A stretch of DNA of 64,000 bases, from NCBI GenBank assembly GCA_040220135.1, contig JAVJTT010000025.1, positions 106,146 to 170,145 on the forward strand, given 5' to 3'. The notes below the pieces were generated by a model. That model made no database searches, was not told the origin of the DNA, and saw nothing but the letters and a program-made list of their open reading frames with translations. The position numbers and the translations under genes were made by a program. Of the stretch, positions 2,557 through 31,857 are shown piece by piece; the stretch's first letter is position 1, and every line of letters begins with the position of its first letter. Origin of the DNA: Vicingaceae bacterium. Lineage in GTDB: Bacteria > Bacteroidota > Bacteroidia > Flavobacteriales_E > Vicingaceae.

Positions 2557-4608
2557 CTAATAGTCGTCATCAACTTGGGTCGGCAAATTACCGATGACTT
2601 TAAATTCAGTTCGCCTGTTTTGTGCTCTTCCTTCGGGATTATCAGAACCATCAGACTTCTCATTCGGTGCAATGGGCTTGGTTTCCCCATACCCTTTGGC
2701 AATCAAACGACTAGAAGCAATTCCTTTTTCTGTTAAGAAATCAACTACCGCTTGAGCTCTTTTATCGGATAAGCTTTTATTGTAGGCTGCCGAGCCCTTG
2801 CTGTCAGTATGTGCCGCTACTTCAACTTTAATGCTTGGATTATCTCGGAGTATACCGAAAAGTGATTGGCTTAGCTTTTCTTTTGCTTCTGCAGTTAGCT
2901 CAGCACTGTTATAACCGTATTCAATTTCTTCCATCACAATGGACTCTTCAGACATGCGTTCGGTTTCAAAGTTGAGTTCAAACTCTTTATCCGAATTCAC
3001 ATTTTCAGTGCTAATCTCTTCAAAACGAGAAAAATAGCCATCTTTATTTAACTCCACTACATAGTCCATGCCCGGTTCTAAGTTAACTTCAAAGTCGCAA
3101 TCTTTCATTAATAGCTTGCGCGAAAGGTACTTTTCATCTTCTCCATTCTTGATGTATAGCTTTAACCAAGTGCTATCTAGACAGCCCTCTTTGGTTCGAG
3201 CCATTCCTTTCAACTTAATATCCAATAAGCGGGTGTAGTTAAACTCATAAATGTCATCGCAACAATAGTCGTTTAGGTTGGCCCCACCCTTTCGATTAGA
3301 AACAATAAAGCCTCCTTTCCTCTTGGGGTGCAAAGTAAAATCCAGATCATCAGCCGAAGAGTTCAGGTCTTTCCCCATGTGTTCCGGCTCTTCCCACTTG
3401 CTTTTCTCACCATTTGCACGATAAATATCCAAACCTCCTAAGCCCACTAGTCCATTTGAGCTAAAGTAAAGTCGATGCGTTTCTAAGTCGTAATATGGAG
3501 TAGCTTCTGTAGCAATGGTATTGATCTTGGAACCCGCATTTCTAGGACTTCTGAACTCTCTGCGTTTCCACCGATACTCAGTGTACCAAATGTCCATTTC
3601 TCCTTTTCCACCCGGTCTATCTGAAGCAAAGTAAATGATCTCTCGGTTTCGTTTTGACTCTCTTCCAATAGCAGGTTGTGTAGTAGTATAGTTGGGAAGA
3701 TTTACTTCCCCTTCAATTTTCTTAGCTGAAGTCCACCCTTTGTCTCTTTTGTCGGCATAATAAAGGTGACAAATCACTTTATGGGCTTCATTTCGCTTGC
3801 AAAGGGTAAAGTAAATTCGGCTTCCGTCTTGGCGCAAAACAGCATTTCCCACATCCATGTCCTCTCGATTAAAAGGCCCGGTCAATTCTCCTTTGGGAAT
3901 CCACGCTCCACCTTCTTTTACAGCCACGTAAAATTTTCTTCTTGGAAGGGTATTACTATCCAATTCTTGCCTATCGTATACTTCTAATTGGTCCTTTCGC
4001 AAAGAACCGTATATCAAGGTGTTCTCATCATAAGGAACTGGAGAAAATTCAATGTGCGCCTTGTTTAATTCACCATTTAAGTGCTTGACTACGGCTAGCT
4101 TCTCTTCCCCTTCAGCTTGCATGGCAAACTCACAACTCTCTAACCCAATATCAGTTAGCTTTCTGTACTTTCTATCGTCCAGGCCTCTTGCATAATCTTC
4201 AAAGGCTAAAAAGTTCTCTTTGGCCTCTTTGTATTTGCCTAAGGTCATTTGGACTTGAGCTAAATAGAAATAAGATTTAGGAAAAGAAGCAGGAGCCGCT
4301 TCAATTACTTCTTTGTATTTTTTCTCGGCCTTGGTAAAACTTTTACTTATCCTCAATAGGTTGGCTACTTGAAAGGCCACACCAATGTTTTTAGGTTCAC
4401 GCTTTAACCATTCTTCATAATAATTAAGCGCGATATAAGTATCGCCTATACGGACTGCGTTTCTGGCGGTTACCTTAACTTCTCGCTTCGATACGTTCTC
4501 TAAATTTGGCTGCTGTGCTTTTAGTGTTTTTGGAGTAACAAGAGTTACTGCTAAAAAGAAAAGCAAACTGCTAAGAAAAGATATGTGAATTGGTTTAGAA
4601 ACGATCAC
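2557..4608 (-). CDS. OmpA family protein (TPR + TolB/PD40-like beta-propeller region + C-terminal OmpA peptidoglycan-binding domain)
   Basis: 683-aa ORF with GTG start overlapping the upstream stop. Signal peptide present. C-terminus VEVAAHTDSKGSAAYNKSLSDKRAQAVVDFL...NRRTEF is the OmpA_C signature. Position after a PorP/SprF gene is typical. Confidence 0.85.
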   Translation of the reverse strand: MIVSKPIHISFLSSLLFFLAVTLVTPKTLKAQQPNLENVSKREVKVTARNAVRIGDTYIALNYYEEWLKREPKNIGVAFQVANLLRISKSFTKAEKKYKEVIEAAPASFPKSYFYLAQVQMTLGKYKEAKENFLAFEDYARGLDDRKYRKLTDIGLESCEFAMQAEGEEKLAVVKHLNGELNKAHIEFSPVPYDENTLIYGSLRKDQLEVYDRQELDSNTLPRRKFYVAVKEGGAWIPKGELTGPFNREDMDVGNAVLRQDGSRIYFTLCKRNEAHKVICHLYYADKRDKGWTSAKKIEGEVNLPNYTTTQPAIGRESKRNREIIYFASDRPGGKGEMDIWYTEYRWKRREFRSPRNAGSKINTIATEATPYYDLETHRLYFSSNGLVGLGGLDIYRANGEKSKWEEPEHMGKDLNSSADDLDFTLHPKRKGGFIVSNRKGGANLNDYCCDDIYEFNYTRLLDIKLKGMARTKEGCLDSTWLKLYIKNGEDEKYLSRKLLMKDCDFEVNLEPGMDYVVELNKDGYFSRFEEISTENVNSDKEFELNFETERMSEESIVMEEIEYGYNSAELTAEAKEKLSQSLFGILRDNPSIKVEVAAHTDSKGSAAYNKSLSDKRAQAVVDFLTEKGIASSRLIAKGYGETKPIAPNEKSDGSDNPEGRAQNRRTEFKVIGNLPTQVDDDY

Positions 4609-13910: not shown

Positions 13911-14531
13911 CTAGTCTATTGCACTAAGTAAGGGTGCCGCTTTATGACAAAATATAAAATTTGACTGACTCTCAAAAAGTCCGATAACCTCCTCCCTACT
14001 TACGTTGGTTTTTGAATTAGACATCAAAGCTGAGTAAGAGGAGTACTTCCAATCTTCCATTTCATTTGTCAAACCTGCCTCAATTGGATTATAATGAATG
14101 TAATGGATTAGCTTTCTTAAGTATTTTTCATCATCAATTCGCTTTCGCTTGAATGGTTTCATAAAAAGACTTCCTTTTCGCTGATGCACTTTGTTGAATG
14201 CTTGCGTATAAGAACTAAAGAAGTTTGAAAACTATTTACTGATTGCTAAACCATAGTTGAACTCTGCCAAAGTTTGAAACTTTGGCAGAGTTTGGTCTTT
14301 TAATAACTCTGATTTTAGGTCTTTCTCCTCTTTAACCCTTACCAAAAAATGAAAATGATTTGGCATTAAACAATAGCAGAAGGTATCGACAAGTGGACTA
14401 ATGTATTCCTCATACTTTTTTAAGAAATAGCGATAGTTATCATCTGTCAAAAACAGCTTTTCATTGCCATTTGCCCGATTATAAACATGGTAAAGCCCTT
14501 CTTCCTCAAATATTGCTAGCTTATTTTTCAT
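13911..14531 (-). pseudogene. REP-associated tyrosine transposase (RAYT / IS200-like Y1 transposase) interrupted by one in-frame TAG
   Basis: Track ORFs 14232..14531 and 13911..14189 are in the same frame: (14231-14189)=42. The 14 codons between them read FSNFFSSYTQAFNK. HUH motif MPNHFHFLV and catalytic-Tyr motif YIHYNPIEAGL are present. A single TAG sits at 14232-14234. Confidence 0.75.
14261..14291. repeat. REP-like palindrome inside the RAYT coding sequence
   Basis: ACTCTGCCAAAGTTT-G-AAACTTTGGCAGAGT, with 15-nt perfect arms. Its core CTGCCARRGTTT resembles the REP arms at 14601-14633. It encodes LPKFQTLAEF, ~30 nt upstream of the premature TAG. Confidence 0.6.
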
Positions 14532-14542
14532 TTGTAGATTTC

Positions 14543-14633
14543 AGACCTTCTAGGTTTCTAAAACCTAGAAGGTCTTATCAATTCATCATCATATCATTTC
14601 AGACCTGCCAGGTTTTGGAAACCTGGCAGGTCT
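14543..14633. repeat. Tandem pair of REP-type hairpins immediately upstream of the RAYT gene
   Basis: Hairpin 1: AGACCTTCTAGGTTT (14543-14557) / AAACCTAGAAGGTCT (14561-14575). Hairpin 2: AGACCTGCCAGGTTT (14601-14615) / AAACCTGGCAGGTCT (14619-14633). Both have perfect 15-bp stems, 3-nt loops and shared AGACCT..AGGTTT ends. They may also terminate the gene ending at 14650. Confidence 0.75.
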
Positions 14634-28540: not shown

Positions 28541-28943
28541 AACTTAAAGTTTTGTGATCCGGCCCTTAATTGGCATAAGTATCCTATTCAGCTAAAAGCC
28601 GGATCTGGTTTAAAATTGATTTTTAGATGTGCGGCCGCACAGTTGGGAAGGGATGAGTCACTGCTTCTACTCGAAATCATTTTACTTCCCATCAATCAAG
28701 TAGAAAGCAGATTTCTCATCTGTTTATCAGAAGCCGTTTTAGGTTTGTTACCTTTCAATGGCACTTTCAGTGAATAATTAAATACTAAAGTGCTTAACAA
28801 GTTGACTGAAAACAGTCTTTGGCTTCAAACAACAGTTCAAAGGTTCATAGAATGTCAGGAGTAATAATTCGGGAGGGCTCGGGAGGTCAGATATTTGGCC
28901 CTATTTCTCTTTGATTTTGTTTGAAATTGTTAGTTTTAAAAGC

Positions 28944-29666
28944 ATGGATATCAACGCAGATTTAGGTGAAGGAGCGGGAAATGACGAAGCGATTATGCCT
29001 TTGATCTCTTCTTGCAACATTGCTTGTGGCGGTCATGCCGGTGATGAGGAAAGTATTCGAAAAACCATTCGCTTGACCCAACAACACAATGTTAAAGTTG
29101 GAGCACATCCCGCCTACCCTAATCGCAAAAATTTTGGACGAAAGCGTTTAGATATAAGTCCACAAGATTTTGAAAGCTCATTGCGAGGGCAGCTACAGCT
29201 CTTCCAAAAAATTTGTTCCGAAGAAGGGGTTGAAATCCACCACATTAAACCCCATGGTGCTTTGTATAATCAAGGAGCCAATCGAGAAGATGATGTGGAA
29301 GTCATGCTGAAGGTATTTTCTGAGCTACTACCTGAAATGAAAATATACTTACAAGACAACTCTTTGCTGTATCAAAAAGCCAAGCAGCACTTCCCTATTT
29401 GCTTAGAAGCCTTTGTCGACCGAAAATATGCTGATGGAAATTCGTTGGTAAATAGAAGTCACGACCAAGCTTTGATAACAGAACCAAAAGAAGCTTGGCA
29501 GCAGTTGTATGACATTTACAAGCAACAAGAAGTTACTGATATAAGGGGCAATCAACATCATTTAAAAGCGCACACTTTTTGTATTCATGGTGATCATGCG
29601 GCATCTATTGATATCTTAACTTTCATACATGAACAATTGAAAGTAAATGACATTGCACTGGCATGA
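28944..29666 (+). CDS. pxpA: 5-oxoprolinase subunit A (LamB/YcsF family)
   Basis: ATG at 28944 gives MDINADLGEGAGNDEAIMPLISSCNIACGGHAGD; also HIKPHGALYN. 4-nt overlap with pxpB. Confidence 0.9.
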   Translation: MDINADLGEGAGNDEAIMPLISSCNIACGGHAGDEESIRKTIRLTQQHNVKVGAHPAYPNRKNFGRKRLDISPQDFESSLRGQLQLFQKICSEEGVEIHHIKPHGALYNQGANREDDVEVMLKVFSELLPEMKIYLQDNSLLYQKAKQHFPICLEAFVDRKYADGNSLVNRSHDQALITEPKEAWQQLYDIYKQQEVTDIRGNQHHLKAHTFCIHGDHAASIDILTFIHEQLKVNDIALA

Positions 29667-30340
29667 AGGTAAACCTTAAAAAAGTCGGAACACACTGCTT
29701 GATTTTGCAATGGGAGGAAACTATACCGCAGCAAATGCAGGCGGTTCAGACCTACATAAAAGACAAGTTCGATAAAGATGTTTTGGAAATGGTGCCAACG
29801 TATCGTGAGCTAGCTCTCTACCTACATTTTGAAAGCGATATATATGCACTAAAAGAAAGCTTAGAGGCAAACCTCCCCAAAATAGAAGTCAACCGAAGTC
29901 AAGAGGATGGTCAGGTATTTCAAATTCCGGTTTGTTACAGCCCAAAGTATGGAATGGATCTTAAGCCTTTAGCAAAAGCCAAAGAACTCAGTGTTGCAGA
30001 GCTAATCGAACGGCATACAGCGCCCACTTATCAGATTCACTTTTTGGGTTTTTTACCTGGCTTTCCCTATTTAAGTGGGCTAGATGAGAAGCTACAGCAT
30101 TCGCGTTTAGAAAGTCCTCGCCAAAAGATTCCGGCCGGTTCGGTGGGTATTGCCGGCACGCAGACGGGTATTTATCCTCATTCATCGCCGGGTGGTTGGA
30201 ACTTGATTGGTAGAACTCCGCTTAAACTGTTTGACATTGAGCAAAGTCCTCCTGCTCTCTTGAAGCCCATGCAGAAATTGAAATTTTATGCCATTAGTGA
30301 AAAGGAGTTTGAGGAAAAAGAAAAAGAGTTGAAAAGGTGA
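29663..30340 (+). CDS. pxpB: 5-oxoprolinase subunit B (KipI / allophanate hydrolase subunit 1 family)
   Basis: Motifs TYRELALYL, YQIHFLGFLPGFPYL and PAGSVGIAGTQTGIYP. Confidence 0.9.
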   Translation: MKVNLKKVGTHCLILQWEETIPQQMQAVQTYIKDKFDKDVLEMVPTYRELALYLHFESDIYALKESLEANLPKIEVNRSQEDGQVFQIPVCYSPKYGMDLKPLAKAKELSVAELIERHTAPTYQIHFLGFLPGFPYLSGLDEKLQHSRLESPRQKIPAGSVGIAGTQTGIYPHSSPGGWNLIGRTPLKLFDIEQSPPALLKPMQKLKFYAISEKEFEEKEKELKR

Positions 30341-30935
30341 AGAGTTGAATAGAATAAGAGATAAAAAGTTGAAAAGTAACTTGTCAACTAGATTGTCCCG
30401 ATTAATTAGAATGTCTGTCTGCCTCAGGCAGATATCGAGAACAACAAGCGGATAAGTGAAAATACCATGATGCTGAACCGCAAAGAACACAAAGAAGCCT
30501 CTAAGTGCGCTAAGAATTAAACTTTGAGAACTTATCTAGAGCTTGGAGCCCTTTGTGGTAAATCAAAAAGAGGAAGAGTTGAATAGTTAAAGAGTATAAA
30601 TATGAGAAAGTAGCTTGTCCGTTCGAGTGATCCCGAAACTTCGGGATTGTATCGAGAACGACAAGTGGATAAATAATAAAACTAGATGCTAAACCGTAAA
30701 GAACACAAAGAAGACACAAAGTGCATTAAGTACAGTTACTTTGAGAACTTAGCGGAAACTTAGCGCCCTTTGAGGTTAGAATAAGAGTTGAAGAGTTGAA
30801 AAGATGAAAAGTTAAAAAGGAGCTTGTCCGTTCGACAGGCCCGATTTATTAAGATGCCTGCCCGGATGAACTCTGTTAAGACGGGTATCGAGAACAACAA
30901 GCAGAAATAGAGCTTAGAACTAATAAGTTTACAAG
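30339..30935. repeat. 2.7 tandem copies of a ~217-234-nt structured unit filling the pxpB-pxpC spacer
   Basis: Unit starts GAAGAGTTGAA at 30339, 30573 and 30790. Conserved blocks: CTTGTC (30380, 30614, 30823); TATCGAGAAC(A/G)ACAAG (30433, 30650, 30886); GATGCT(G/A)AACCG(C/T)AAAGAACACAAAGAAG; CTTTGAGAACTTA; GCCCTTTG(T/A)GG. The internal hairpins are copy-specific. Confidence 0.75.
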
Positions 30936-31775
30936 ATGATCGAAGTAAAAAAAGCAGGCATATTAAGCAGTCTACAAGACCGTGGTCGCTTTGGTTACCG
31001 CGACCAAGGGGTGCCTCTTAGCGGTGCTATGGATCAGTACTCTGCCGCTTTTGCCAATCAATTGCTAGGCAACAAAGCTGATCGTGCAGTATTGGAATTT
31101 GCTTTGCAAGGTCCTACTCTATTTTTCAATGAAGCTTGTAAGATTGTAATCTGTGGAGCAGACTGGCAAGTTGAATTAAATGGAAATGCCATCGACTTAA
31201 ATACCGTGATTGAGGTACCCGATCAATCTACTTTAAAATGTAAAGGCGTAAAATCTGGTATATATGGCTACTTAGCCGTGCAAAATGGGTTTAGGGAAGA
31301 GAAAGTACTTGGTAGCTACAGTTATTACCAAGGAATAACTTCAAAGGCAAAGATCGAAAAAGGACAAGTTCTAAAATTTAGGGATAGCTATGATACCTCG
31401 CAGCAACATGCTTCGGTATCTTTTCAAGCTGACTTGATTGCTGCATCTAAACTAGCTGTCACTAAAGGACCTGAGTTTGATCAATTGAATGGTGAGCTAA
31501 TGGAATTATTGTTCAATAGAGAGTTCATCATTTCCAAAGACAGCAACCGCATGGCCTATACTTTAAATCATGAGCTTGAGCTTTCAGCTGAAGAGATTAC
31601 TACAGCTCCAGTTCAGCCGGGAACGGTTCAGCTTACCCCTTCCGGAAAATTAGTGGTGTTAATGCGCGATGCGCAAACTACCGGTGGTTACGCTAGAATC
31701 TTACAACTCACCCCTATGGGGGTCAATCAATTGGCGCAGAAACGGCCGGGAGAGAAAGTATCTTTTCAGCTCTAA
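30936..31775 (+). CDS. pxpC: 5-oxoprolinase subunit C (KipA / allophanate hydrolase subunit 2 family)
   Basis: MIEVKKAGILSSLQDRGRFGYRDQGVPLSGAMDQYSAAFANQLLGN and TTGGYARI. Confidence 0.9.
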   Translation: MIEVKKAGILSSLQDRGRFGYRDQGVPLSGAMDQYSAAFANQLLGNKADRAVLEFALQGPTLFFNEACKIVICGADWQVELNGNAIDLNTVIEVPDQSTLKCKGVKSGIYGYLAVQNGFREEKVLGSYSYYQGITSKAKIEKGQVLKFRDSYDTSQQHASVSFQADLIAASKLAVTKGPEFDQLNGELMELLFNREFIISKDSNRMAYTLNHELELSAEEITTAPVQPGTVQLTPSGKLVVLMRDAQTTGGYARILQLTPMGVNQLAQKRPGEKVSFQL

Positions 31776-31857
31776 ACTATATAAATCATTAATATCAATG
31801 ATTGACATGGCTTAGAAATAGAAGAAAATTTATGGGACTAATCAATTAGCCCCTGTC

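Follow-up and report, generated by a model that had tools for sequence, protein, structure and literature searches.

In Escherichia coli, repetitive extragenic palindromes (REPs) and linker motifs form arrays known as bacterial interspersed mosaic elements (BIMEs), BIME-2 in particular, and REP hairpins between malE and malF increase the expression of the gene that precedes them. In Streptococcus pneumoniae, BOX elements follow a boxA-boxB(n)-boxC plan, and the REPINs of Bertels and Rainey are reportedly REP doublets that form hairpins. CGTC-tagged REPs, which are reported from Bacteroidetes, have a stem of ~8 bp that begins with an A-T pair, a 4-nt loop, frequent dimers and apparently no dedicated transposase (Di Nocera, De Gregorio and Rocco 2013, PMC3733652), and subclasses 2.4 and 2.6 of the REP-associated tyrosine transposases (RAYTs) also occur there (Quentin et al. 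2018, PMC6006769). Here we describe a 595-nt spacer between pxpB and pxpC in the 5-oxoprolinase operon of a Vicingaceae bacterium, within a 64,000-nt stretch of contig JAVJTT010000025.1 (the window). This spacer is probably a BIME-like mosaic of repeats of the REP or miniature inverted-repeat transposable element (MITE) type, which invaded the pxpB/pxpC junction, grew there and uncoupled the translation of pxpC.

The mosaic is built from three modules. P denotes its purine-rich microrepeats, A is a hairpin element of the type CTTGTC...GACAAG, and B is a stretch of ~95 nt that forms the 3' half of each unit. As in BIMEs, a palindromic unit is combined head-to-tail with other short conserved motifs, in variable number, within extragenic clusters that lie after genes, between convergent or co-directional genes and within operons, malE-malF being the classic case of the last. 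Unlike in BIMEs, module A has neither a GT[AG]G tag nor an association with RAYTs, its inner hairpins are exchangeable, its tiers are nested in alternating orientation, and the units are longer (~220 nt), with purine microrepeats and a ~95-nt unstructured module. BOX elements are likewise modular, intergenic and potentially foldable, and one of their modules is repeated in tandem a variable number of times, but their sequences are unrelated and the host phylum is different.

An insertion separates pxpB from pxpC

Pfam analysis confirmed that the genes encoding LamB_YcsF, CT_C_D and CT_A_B proteins are adjacent and constitute a pxpABC operon. The coordinates given in the original prediction, which was made from the window sequence, were all verified: pxpA and pxpB overlap by 4 nt (29663-29666), and the pxpB stop codon is separated from the pxpC ATG at 30936 by 595 nt (30341-30935). 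In window coordinates, the genes and the segment preceding pxpC are as follows.

28911..29666, plus strand: pxpA, LamB/YcsF family (Pfam PF03746 LamB_YcsF, E = 1.2e-74)
29663..30340, plus strand: pxpB, CT_C_D, stop codon at 30338-30340 (Pfam PF02682, E = 2.2e-64)
30902..30935, plus strand: 34-nt tail before pxpC (compared with the pxpB 3' end of a homologue)
30936..31775, plus strand: pxpC, CT_A_B, intact (Pfam PF02626, E = 4.2e-69)

Five related pxp loci were compared: those of G005, G009 and G013, which belong to the same bacterial family, and those on the contigs that carry the genes for two PxpC homologues among the closest (60% and 62% identical). All of these loci retain the pxpABC order and the 4-nt pxpA/pxpB overlap, and at 5/5 of them pxpB and pxpC are not separated by a spacer but overlap by 8 nt, ATGATTGA. 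On this comparison of sequences, the 595-nt spacer is a lineage-specific insertion into a formerly overlapping junction, which bears out the earlier suggestion that the element uncouples pxpC. The pxpBC genes are absent from the two other species of the genus (G001 and G002), the closest PxpC homologue among 5.8 billion proteins is 62% identical, and an exact-protein look-up found an identical PxpC in no other assembly. The searched collections contain no closer relative by which to date the insertion.

Two effects on the operon can be read from the sequence, namely a predicted PxpB that is ~11 residues shorter at its C-terminus and the loss of the 8-nt translational coupling to pxpC. PxpB ends with ...AISEKEFEEKEKELKR*, the final codons of its gene running into the purine microrepeat, whereas five homologues end with ...YQI(E/R)(V/T)S(N/Y/H)D* on the ATGATTGA overlap (homologue continuation ...EFEKISAELKNNNYQIRTSND*). 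Since the homologues continue past ELK, PxpB is native up to approximately this point, with the remaining ~11 residues lost. On the other side of the insertion, the start of pxpC (MIEV...) is identical to that of its homologues, and its context reads ATGATCGA, in which the ancestral TGA is now CGA, so the old pxpB stop codon is gone. The 34-nt tail may preserve part of the 3' end of the ancestral pxpB, given a weak similarity between TTAGAACTAATAAGTTTACAAG followed by ATGATCGA and, in a homologue, TTGGAGGTAAGTC followed by ATGATTGA.

Modular architecture of the spacer

The spacer consists of ~2.7 head-to-tail units with starts near 30339, 30573 and 30790 (start-to-start spacings of 234 and 209-217 nt), each with the module order P-A-B. 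Scored against the whole 3.6-Mb genome (G000), the alignments of unit 1 with unit 2 (E = 5.8e-21, 127 nt, 78%) and with unit 3 (E = 1.1e-4) are far beyond chance, in agreement with the ~2.7 tandem units of ~220 nt originally described. The units are 23-35% diverged from one another, and Tandem Repeats Finder (TRF) called no ~220-nt period in the spacer. The modules are listed below, where z relates folding energy to shuffled sequence, R1 is a covariance model of module A, and C21 is another contig of G000.

30341..30379, plus strand: P1, purine-rich microrepeats AAGAGTTGAA / AAAGTTGAAAAG (TRF periods of 8 and 16 nt over 30316-30377; repeat family D1)
30380..30448, plus strand: A1, degenerate module A (alignment with seven long-form copies; fold z = -1.6; no R1 match)
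30469..30559, plus strand: B1, module B, GATGCTGAACCGCAAAGAACACAAAGAAG...ACTTTGAGAACTTA...GCCCTTTGTGGT (alignments with copies from C21 and G001; fold z = -1.0)
30560..30613, plus strand: P2, purine-rich microrepeats (repeat families D1 and D2; P alignment)
30614..30665, plus strand: A2, canonical short-form module A (best R1 match at 30620-30660, 64.6 bits, E = 1.9e-16)
30685..30776, plus strand: B2, second copy of module B (77% identical to B1, 79% to a C21 copy and 78% to a G001 copy; fold z = -1.1)
30777..30822, plus strand: P3, purine-rich microrepeats including AGAGTTGAAAAGATGA at 30792-30807 (TRF period of 8 nt over 30786-30819)
30823..30901, plus strand: A3, degenerate long-form module A with two inner hairpins (86% identical to the C21:337420 long form; z = -1.5; no R1 match)

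The P microrepeats are exemplified by GAAGAGTTGAAAAG, and the repeat register of P1 reaches back to ~30316, within pxpB. Among the A modules of the array only A2 is intact. Its sequence, CTTGTC-C-GTTC-GAGTG-ATCCCGAA-AC-TTCGGGAT-T-GTATCGA-GAAC-GACAAG, folds with an energy of -24.4 kcal/mol (z = -4.7), and a copy at C26:102695 matches it with 94% identity over 52 nt. In A1 and A3 the core bases are mutated and the stems broken: A1 has GATTG in place of GAGTG, has lost the pairing of its first inner hairpin and carries a CTGCC-TCA-GGCAG hairpin cassette directly 5' of TATCGAG, while A3 has GACAG in place of GAGTG and an unpaired first inner hairpin. Of the hairpins that had been pointed out in the array, TCTGCC-TCA-GGCAGA at 30418-30432 and ATCCCGAA-AC-TTCGGGAT at 30630-30647 are both present. 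The description of the unit as structured holds for A2, but is weak for A1 (-1.6), A3 (-1.5) and the two 3' halves (-1.0 and -1.1). As a whole, the spacer folds at -136.9 kcal/mol on the plus strand (z = -3.7) and at -120.6 kcal/mol on the minus strand (z = -2.3).

Dispersed copies and history of the array

A BLAST search with the units identified module A copies on contigs C6, C9, C13, C20, C24 and C26 of the same genome and a full P-A-B composite on C21, with further module matches in G001, G002, G009, G012, G016 and G035. All three modules have copies elsewhere in the genome and in its relatives, as anticipated by the proposal of a small mobile or repeat element.

In G001, a hipBA pair (HipA_C, 2.2e-54; HTH_3 antitoxin) at G001:C1:184000-188549 (L153) is flanked on both sides (1400-1900 and 4080-4550) by ~210-nt tandem arrays, which combine P with the CTTTG-rich arm of module B; a microsatellite of 9 GAAGAGTA copies forms part of them. 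Tandem growth of the modules therefore recurs in the genus.

Such growth would also be compatible with a private origin of the spacer, in which slippage or unequal recombination at the 3' end of pxpB started a tandem duplication that later diverged, with the similar sequences elsewhere being secondary copies. The pxpB terminus AGAGTTGAAAAGGTGA (30325-30340) does have a near-copy, AGAGTTGAAAAGATGA, at the start of unit 3, as had been noticed beforehand; the junctions between units look like the end of pxpB (repeat family D7), and the alignment of the last pxpB codons (ELK) with homologues indicates that this sequence is native to pxpB. However, G001 and G002 carry P, A and B yet lack pxpBC, module A is found in many families of the class and so cannot originate from the pxp locus, and the three A modules belong to distinct subtypes (short; long; long with another hairpin cassette). 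In addition, B1 is 77% identical to B2, B2 is 79% identical to a C21 copy and a C21 copy is 84% identical to a G001 copy, while A3 is 86% identical to the C21 long form and 73% identical to A1. As the units resemble one another no more than they resemble copies from other loci or from another species, the array is not a recent duplication. Together with the presence of the same purine microrepeats at another locus in three species, this renders doubtful the original proposal of a duplication that included the pxpB 3' end. A private tandem duplication is largely refuted by the distribution data and we regard it as quite improbable; the likeness of the pxpB terminus to P may instead reflect microhomology at the insertion point.

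Module A is a covarying hairpin family

Module A is palindromic throughout and follows a common plan, in which an outer stem, GAGTG, an inner hairpin (usually ATCCCGA-loop-TCGGGAT), (T/A)GTATCGA and the other strand of the outer stem succeed one another, with a core length of 31-42 nt. The CTTGTC/GACAAG outer stem and the inner stems that had been predicted are supported by strong covariation across 16 copies that represent 5 genomes: pairing extends to 99.5% of cells, 10/12 pairs are changed on both sides and none of 500 shuffles was equal (0/500), while slid controls drop to 30-65% paired. An alignment of 129 unique copies shows 97-100% invariance at the unpaired loop positions (for GAGTG, G 127, A 128, G 126, T 128 and G 125), whereas the helices are variable. 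The inner stem, ATCCCGA(A)/(T)TCGGGAT, has A-T (95/100) and T-A (121/126) as its first pairs, and most loops measure 4 nt. Changes at the position 5' of GAG are matched in the base with which it pairs (C-G 108, T-A 12), and a candidate TCGA/TCGAG target-site duplication flanking a GTG...GTA element was rejected because this base covaries and is not a repeat of the 3' copy.

Inner hairpins are exchangeable between copies; a CTGCC-YHA-GGCAG hairpin of the A1 type is also present directly 5' of GTATCGA in a G001 element. Tandem G.A pairs next to a G-C pair could arise within the GAGTG/GTATCGA loop, as could a kink-turn-like fold, for which a compatible layout can be drawn (5'-outer stem-GA-GUG-inner stem / 5'-inner stem-UGU-AUC-GA-outer stem). 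The absence of orientation bias among copies speaks against a role as RNA.

Within the bacterial family, a survey of 87 genomes from 25 genera using R1 identified module A in 61 genomes and 17 genera, with 0 to 56 copies per genome. Across the class, where it takes in Flavobacteriales and other Bacteroidia, its distribution is patchy: 37 of 401 evenly sampled genomes had matches (E <= 1e-6), representing at least 13 families. A scan for the exact core, with one genome per species, found it in Crocinitomicaceae, Vicingaceae, Salibacteraceae and, within Flavobacteriaceae, in Gillisia, Croceivirga, Salinimicrobium, Sungkyunkwania, Winogradskyella, Mesonia and Maribacter. The exact core was also encountered several times in metagenome-assembled genomes (MAGs) labelled Cloacimonadota (L058, L059, L062, L064, L083, L102 and L104), and in MAGs labelled Dojkabacteria (L060, L065 and L087) and Deltaproteobacteria (L098). 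Mis-binning, mislabelling or horizontal spread could account for its occurrence in these unrelated phyla.

A comparison with Rfam 15 yielded no relevant match in window positions 29500-31800 (E <= 10) or in the five related loci (E <= 1). The REP table of Quentin et al. (PMC6006769) does not list the module A core, full-text searches by sequence returned nothing, and a literature search for repetitive extragenic palindromes in Flavobacteria returned typing papers only. The family appears to be undescribed, as a variant of REP-type elements. It shares with classical REPs a short extragenic palindrome in many copies and the formation of inverted doublets, but lacks the GT[AG]G tetranucleotide (GAGTG is found instead) and a cognate Y1/RAYT gene.

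The likeness to CGTC-tagged REPs is closer in several respects: the stem is ~8 bp and begins with A-T, the 4-nt loop has short unpaired flanks, inverted dimers are formed, the elements lie mostly between convergent or unidirectional genes, the hosts include Bacteroidetes and a dedicated transposase is apparently absent. Module A differs in that the tag at the stem is GAGTG, not CGTC, TGTC or CCTC, in that the 3' tail is (T/A)GTATCGA, not CCA, and in that a covarying outer helix closes the element, so that the tags form an internal loop and are not free ends. In many copies a (C/T)GTC motif lies 0-4 nt upstream of GAGTG, at a distance of 5-9 nt from the inner stem (for G000, CTTGTCAGTTCGAGTG; for G012, TTGTCGAGTG). 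With REPINs, module A shares inverted doublets and a patchy copy number among related genomes, but it is neither adjacent to nor correlated with Y1 transposase genes.

Genomic behaviour of module A

All genuine module A copies of G000 are intergenic, with 7 between convergent, 8 between co-directional and none (0) between divergent gene pairs; the corresponding figures for G012 and G072 together are 7, 17 and 4. Among co-directional gene pairs, 7 copies are in sense and 9 in antisense orientation. Inverted doublets (GTCAGTTCGAGTG-hairpin-GTATCGAGAAC...GTTCTCGATAC-hairpin-CACTCGAACTGAC) and alternating nested tiers are present in many genomes, but there are none within the pxp array itself. G012 has at least 8 near-identical three-tier copies of ~110 nt (12 loci, L139-L150), which suggests recent amplification. 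These have the sequence CCCCGAC-TATCC-TCGATAC-...-TTGTC-GAGTG-ATTCCGAT-GAAA-TCGGAAT-AGTATCGA-GACA-...-CACTC-AGGAG-CCGTCGGGG, and some copies feature an extra hairpin of ~40 nt at the junction of CACTC and AGGAG.

A three-tier A element at G000:C9:171280-171440 (L039:1470-1620) is orthologous to one in G001:C15 (L031:1440-1620). The two are ~96% identical over ~150 nt, while the intergenic DNA beside them defies alignment and the genes on either side share 78-82% identity. In G001 the element has an extra 20-nt hairpin just before GTATCGA.

Where two element ends lie 0.4-6 kb apart, the genes between them are ordinary and include no transposase. An autonomous element between distant module A ends was rejected, as the enclosed DNA encodes no more than a TonB-dependent receptor, a dienelactone hydrolase and a GIY-YIG protein. 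A 150-aa GIY-YIG domain protein adjoins a module A cluster in a Gillisia MAG (L101:5442-5894), a single case with no evidence of a link.

The window itself reportedly contains an amber-interrupted RAYT (13911-14531) within a region (13911-14633) that has its own, different REP hairpins with the core CTGCCAAAGTTT. R1 found no module A in this region, and a genome search for Y1_Tnp at E <= 1e-4 had no match there. G000 therefore holds at least two unrelated hairpin-repeat families.

A second composite at the znu junction

A second P-A(-B) locus lies between a gene for a ZnuA-type binding protein and an ABC ATPase gene, in the same orientation, in three species of the genus. The composites are as follows.

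C21:337355-337800 (L030:1482-1925), G000: znu-junction composite, 444 nt
L025:1443-1693, G001: znu-junction composite P+A+B, 247 nt
L024:1500-1640, G002: znu-junction composite P+A, 138 nt

The znu operon on C21 encodes a DtxR-like regulator, the binding protein, the ATPase and an ABC-3 permease, and every other junction in it is tight. In two other genera the same junction has 0 nt or an 11-nt overlap, while G005 (~240 nt) and G009 (110 nt) have different, unrelated purine-microrepeat spacers there. The composition differs among the three species of the genus (P+A, P+A+B and P+A+B+P+B+B), and the module A of G000 at this locus has mutated core bases and broken stems.

This recurrence bears on the main rival explanation, a dedicated intercistronic RNA module, which we consider unlikely. 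According to this explanation, P-A-B would form part of the operon transcript, where its hairpins and purine tracts would determine how strongly the upstream and downstream cistrons are expressed relative to each other, by protecting 3' ends, by processing or by partial termination; the pxp array would then be the znuA/ABC-ATPase junction module in several copies. A composite directly follows the upstream stop codon in the same orientation at two operon junctions of G000, and at the znu junction in three species, where it comes after a binding-protein gene, the setting in which the malE-malF REPs raise upstream expression. Purine-microrepeat spacers at the znu junction of other genera (G005 and G009, with two genera lacking one), the better folding of the plus strand of the pxp spacer relative to its minus strand and the conservation of the orthologous A element far above its flanks point in the same direction. 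Nevertheless, A1, A3 and the znu-locus A of G000 are degenerate, the composition of the znu junction differs per species, module B has no supported consensus fold and the A family shows no orientation preference. With no Rfam match, 7 sense and 9 antisense copies and degeneration of 2/3 array hairpins, a strand-specific structured RNA or tandem small RNA genes, along the lines of the original prediction, are unlikely.

Module B and coding potential

B1 and B2 fold like shuffled sequences (z = -1.0 and -1.1). A stem between AACCGYAAAG and CTTTGWGGT had been proposed for this module, but the two differences between units are not compensatory and the stem is not predicted. Its AACCG/CGGTT pairing was also not supported by RNAalifold across five homologues, including the copies from C21 and G001, for which the consensus fold was -3.9 kcal/mol with an unfavourable covariation term. 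As the z scores are near those of shuffles and the covariation term is unfavourable, module B is best described as a conserved sequence without a supported fold.

A further reading is that the units encode small proteins, either from a module B micro-open reading frame (ORF), (M)MLNRKEHKE..., or from minus-strand ORFs of 46-102 aa. B1 and B2 each begin with ATG...CTRAACCGYAAAGAACACAAAGAAG, and the differences there are synonymous. However, homologous B copies have no ATG or have an in-frame TAA (AACCGCTAAG, both G001 copies), the ATG of the C21 copy is in a different frame, the two window ORFs are wholly divergent after 10 codons and have different end points, and no Pfam family matched the minus-strand ORFs at E <= 0.1. 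Both types of ORF were rejected as genes, being neither conserved nor matched in Pfam, and a coding role for the units is highly improbable.

Probable origin and possible role of the mosaic

In the history that we consider probable, dispersed repeat modules would have inserted into the formerly overlapping pxpB/pxpC junction, and the inserted mosaic would then have grown in place as P-A-B units. Module A would act as DNA, probably as a single-stranded hairpin bound by a putative protein. Action as DNA and not as a strand-specific RNA is argued by the lack of orientation bias, by the inverted doublets and alternating tiers, and by the near-identical multi-copy sets.

Transcription of the downstream gene, pxpC, would still run from pxpAB through the spacer, and its translation would start independently at the A/T-rich tail. 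A canonical Bacteroidetes -7 box (TAnnTTTG) is absent from the spacer, in which the only similar sequence is a near -7 box, TAAGTTTA, at 12 nt upstream of the pxpC ATG, and scans of the spacer for sigma-70 promoters and terminators were at chance level, so pxpC is most likely transcribed with pxpAB. By analogy with known REPs, the A2 hairpin could serve as a 3'-end barrier that slows 3'-to-5' decay of the upstream message. The hairpins may thus favour the upstream mRNA in the manner of the malE-malF REPs of E. coli, and the composite after the binding-protein gene at the znu junction would fit such an upstream-stabilising role.

Several observations weigh against an origin by invasion of mobile repeats. 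No transposase or other mobilising protein was identified for module A. In particular, there was no R1 match within ~1.5 kb of 12 Y1_Tnp loci, and across the 87 family genomes the presence of module A was unrelated to that of Y1_Tnp (odds ratio 1.0, Spearman rho 0.14); 12-25 copies are present without Y1_Tnp in each of G072, G076, G099 and G068. A RAYT link was rejected, as there is neither adjacency nor co-occurrence. No target-site duplication was seen around the G012 copies (12 loci), so mobility is deduced only from distribution and near-identical copies. The ~96% identity of the orthologous A element beside DNA that cannot be aligned indicates purifying selection or gene conversion, which is not expected of pure junk. 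The orientation of P-A-B relative to the operon is constant at both loci and in three species, as expected of a role at the RNA level. On both counts, a function for the host is conceivable. Finally, non-Watson-Crick pairs on the GAGTG strand are mostly G.T (22) with few A.C (6), a count biased by the fitting of the alignment to the model, and this excess suggests that one strand is functional.

A broader proposal, which we offer tentatively, is that module A represents an undescribed REP-like superfamily of Bacteroidia, characterised by an invariant asymmetric loop, covarying helices and exchangeable cassettes. Such a superfamily would be served by a non-RAYT protein, some of its copies would be under purifying selection, and the pxp and znu loci would be cases in which the host uses the element to uncouple cistrons.

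REP-type elements are poorly characterised outside Proteobacteria. The searchable model of module A (R1) would be useful for genome annotation and provides a concrete target for finding the protein that recognises these repeats. At the pxp locus, where repeat DNA has broken a translationally coupled gene pair, the operon offers a natural test of how important that coupling is for a three-subunit enzyme.

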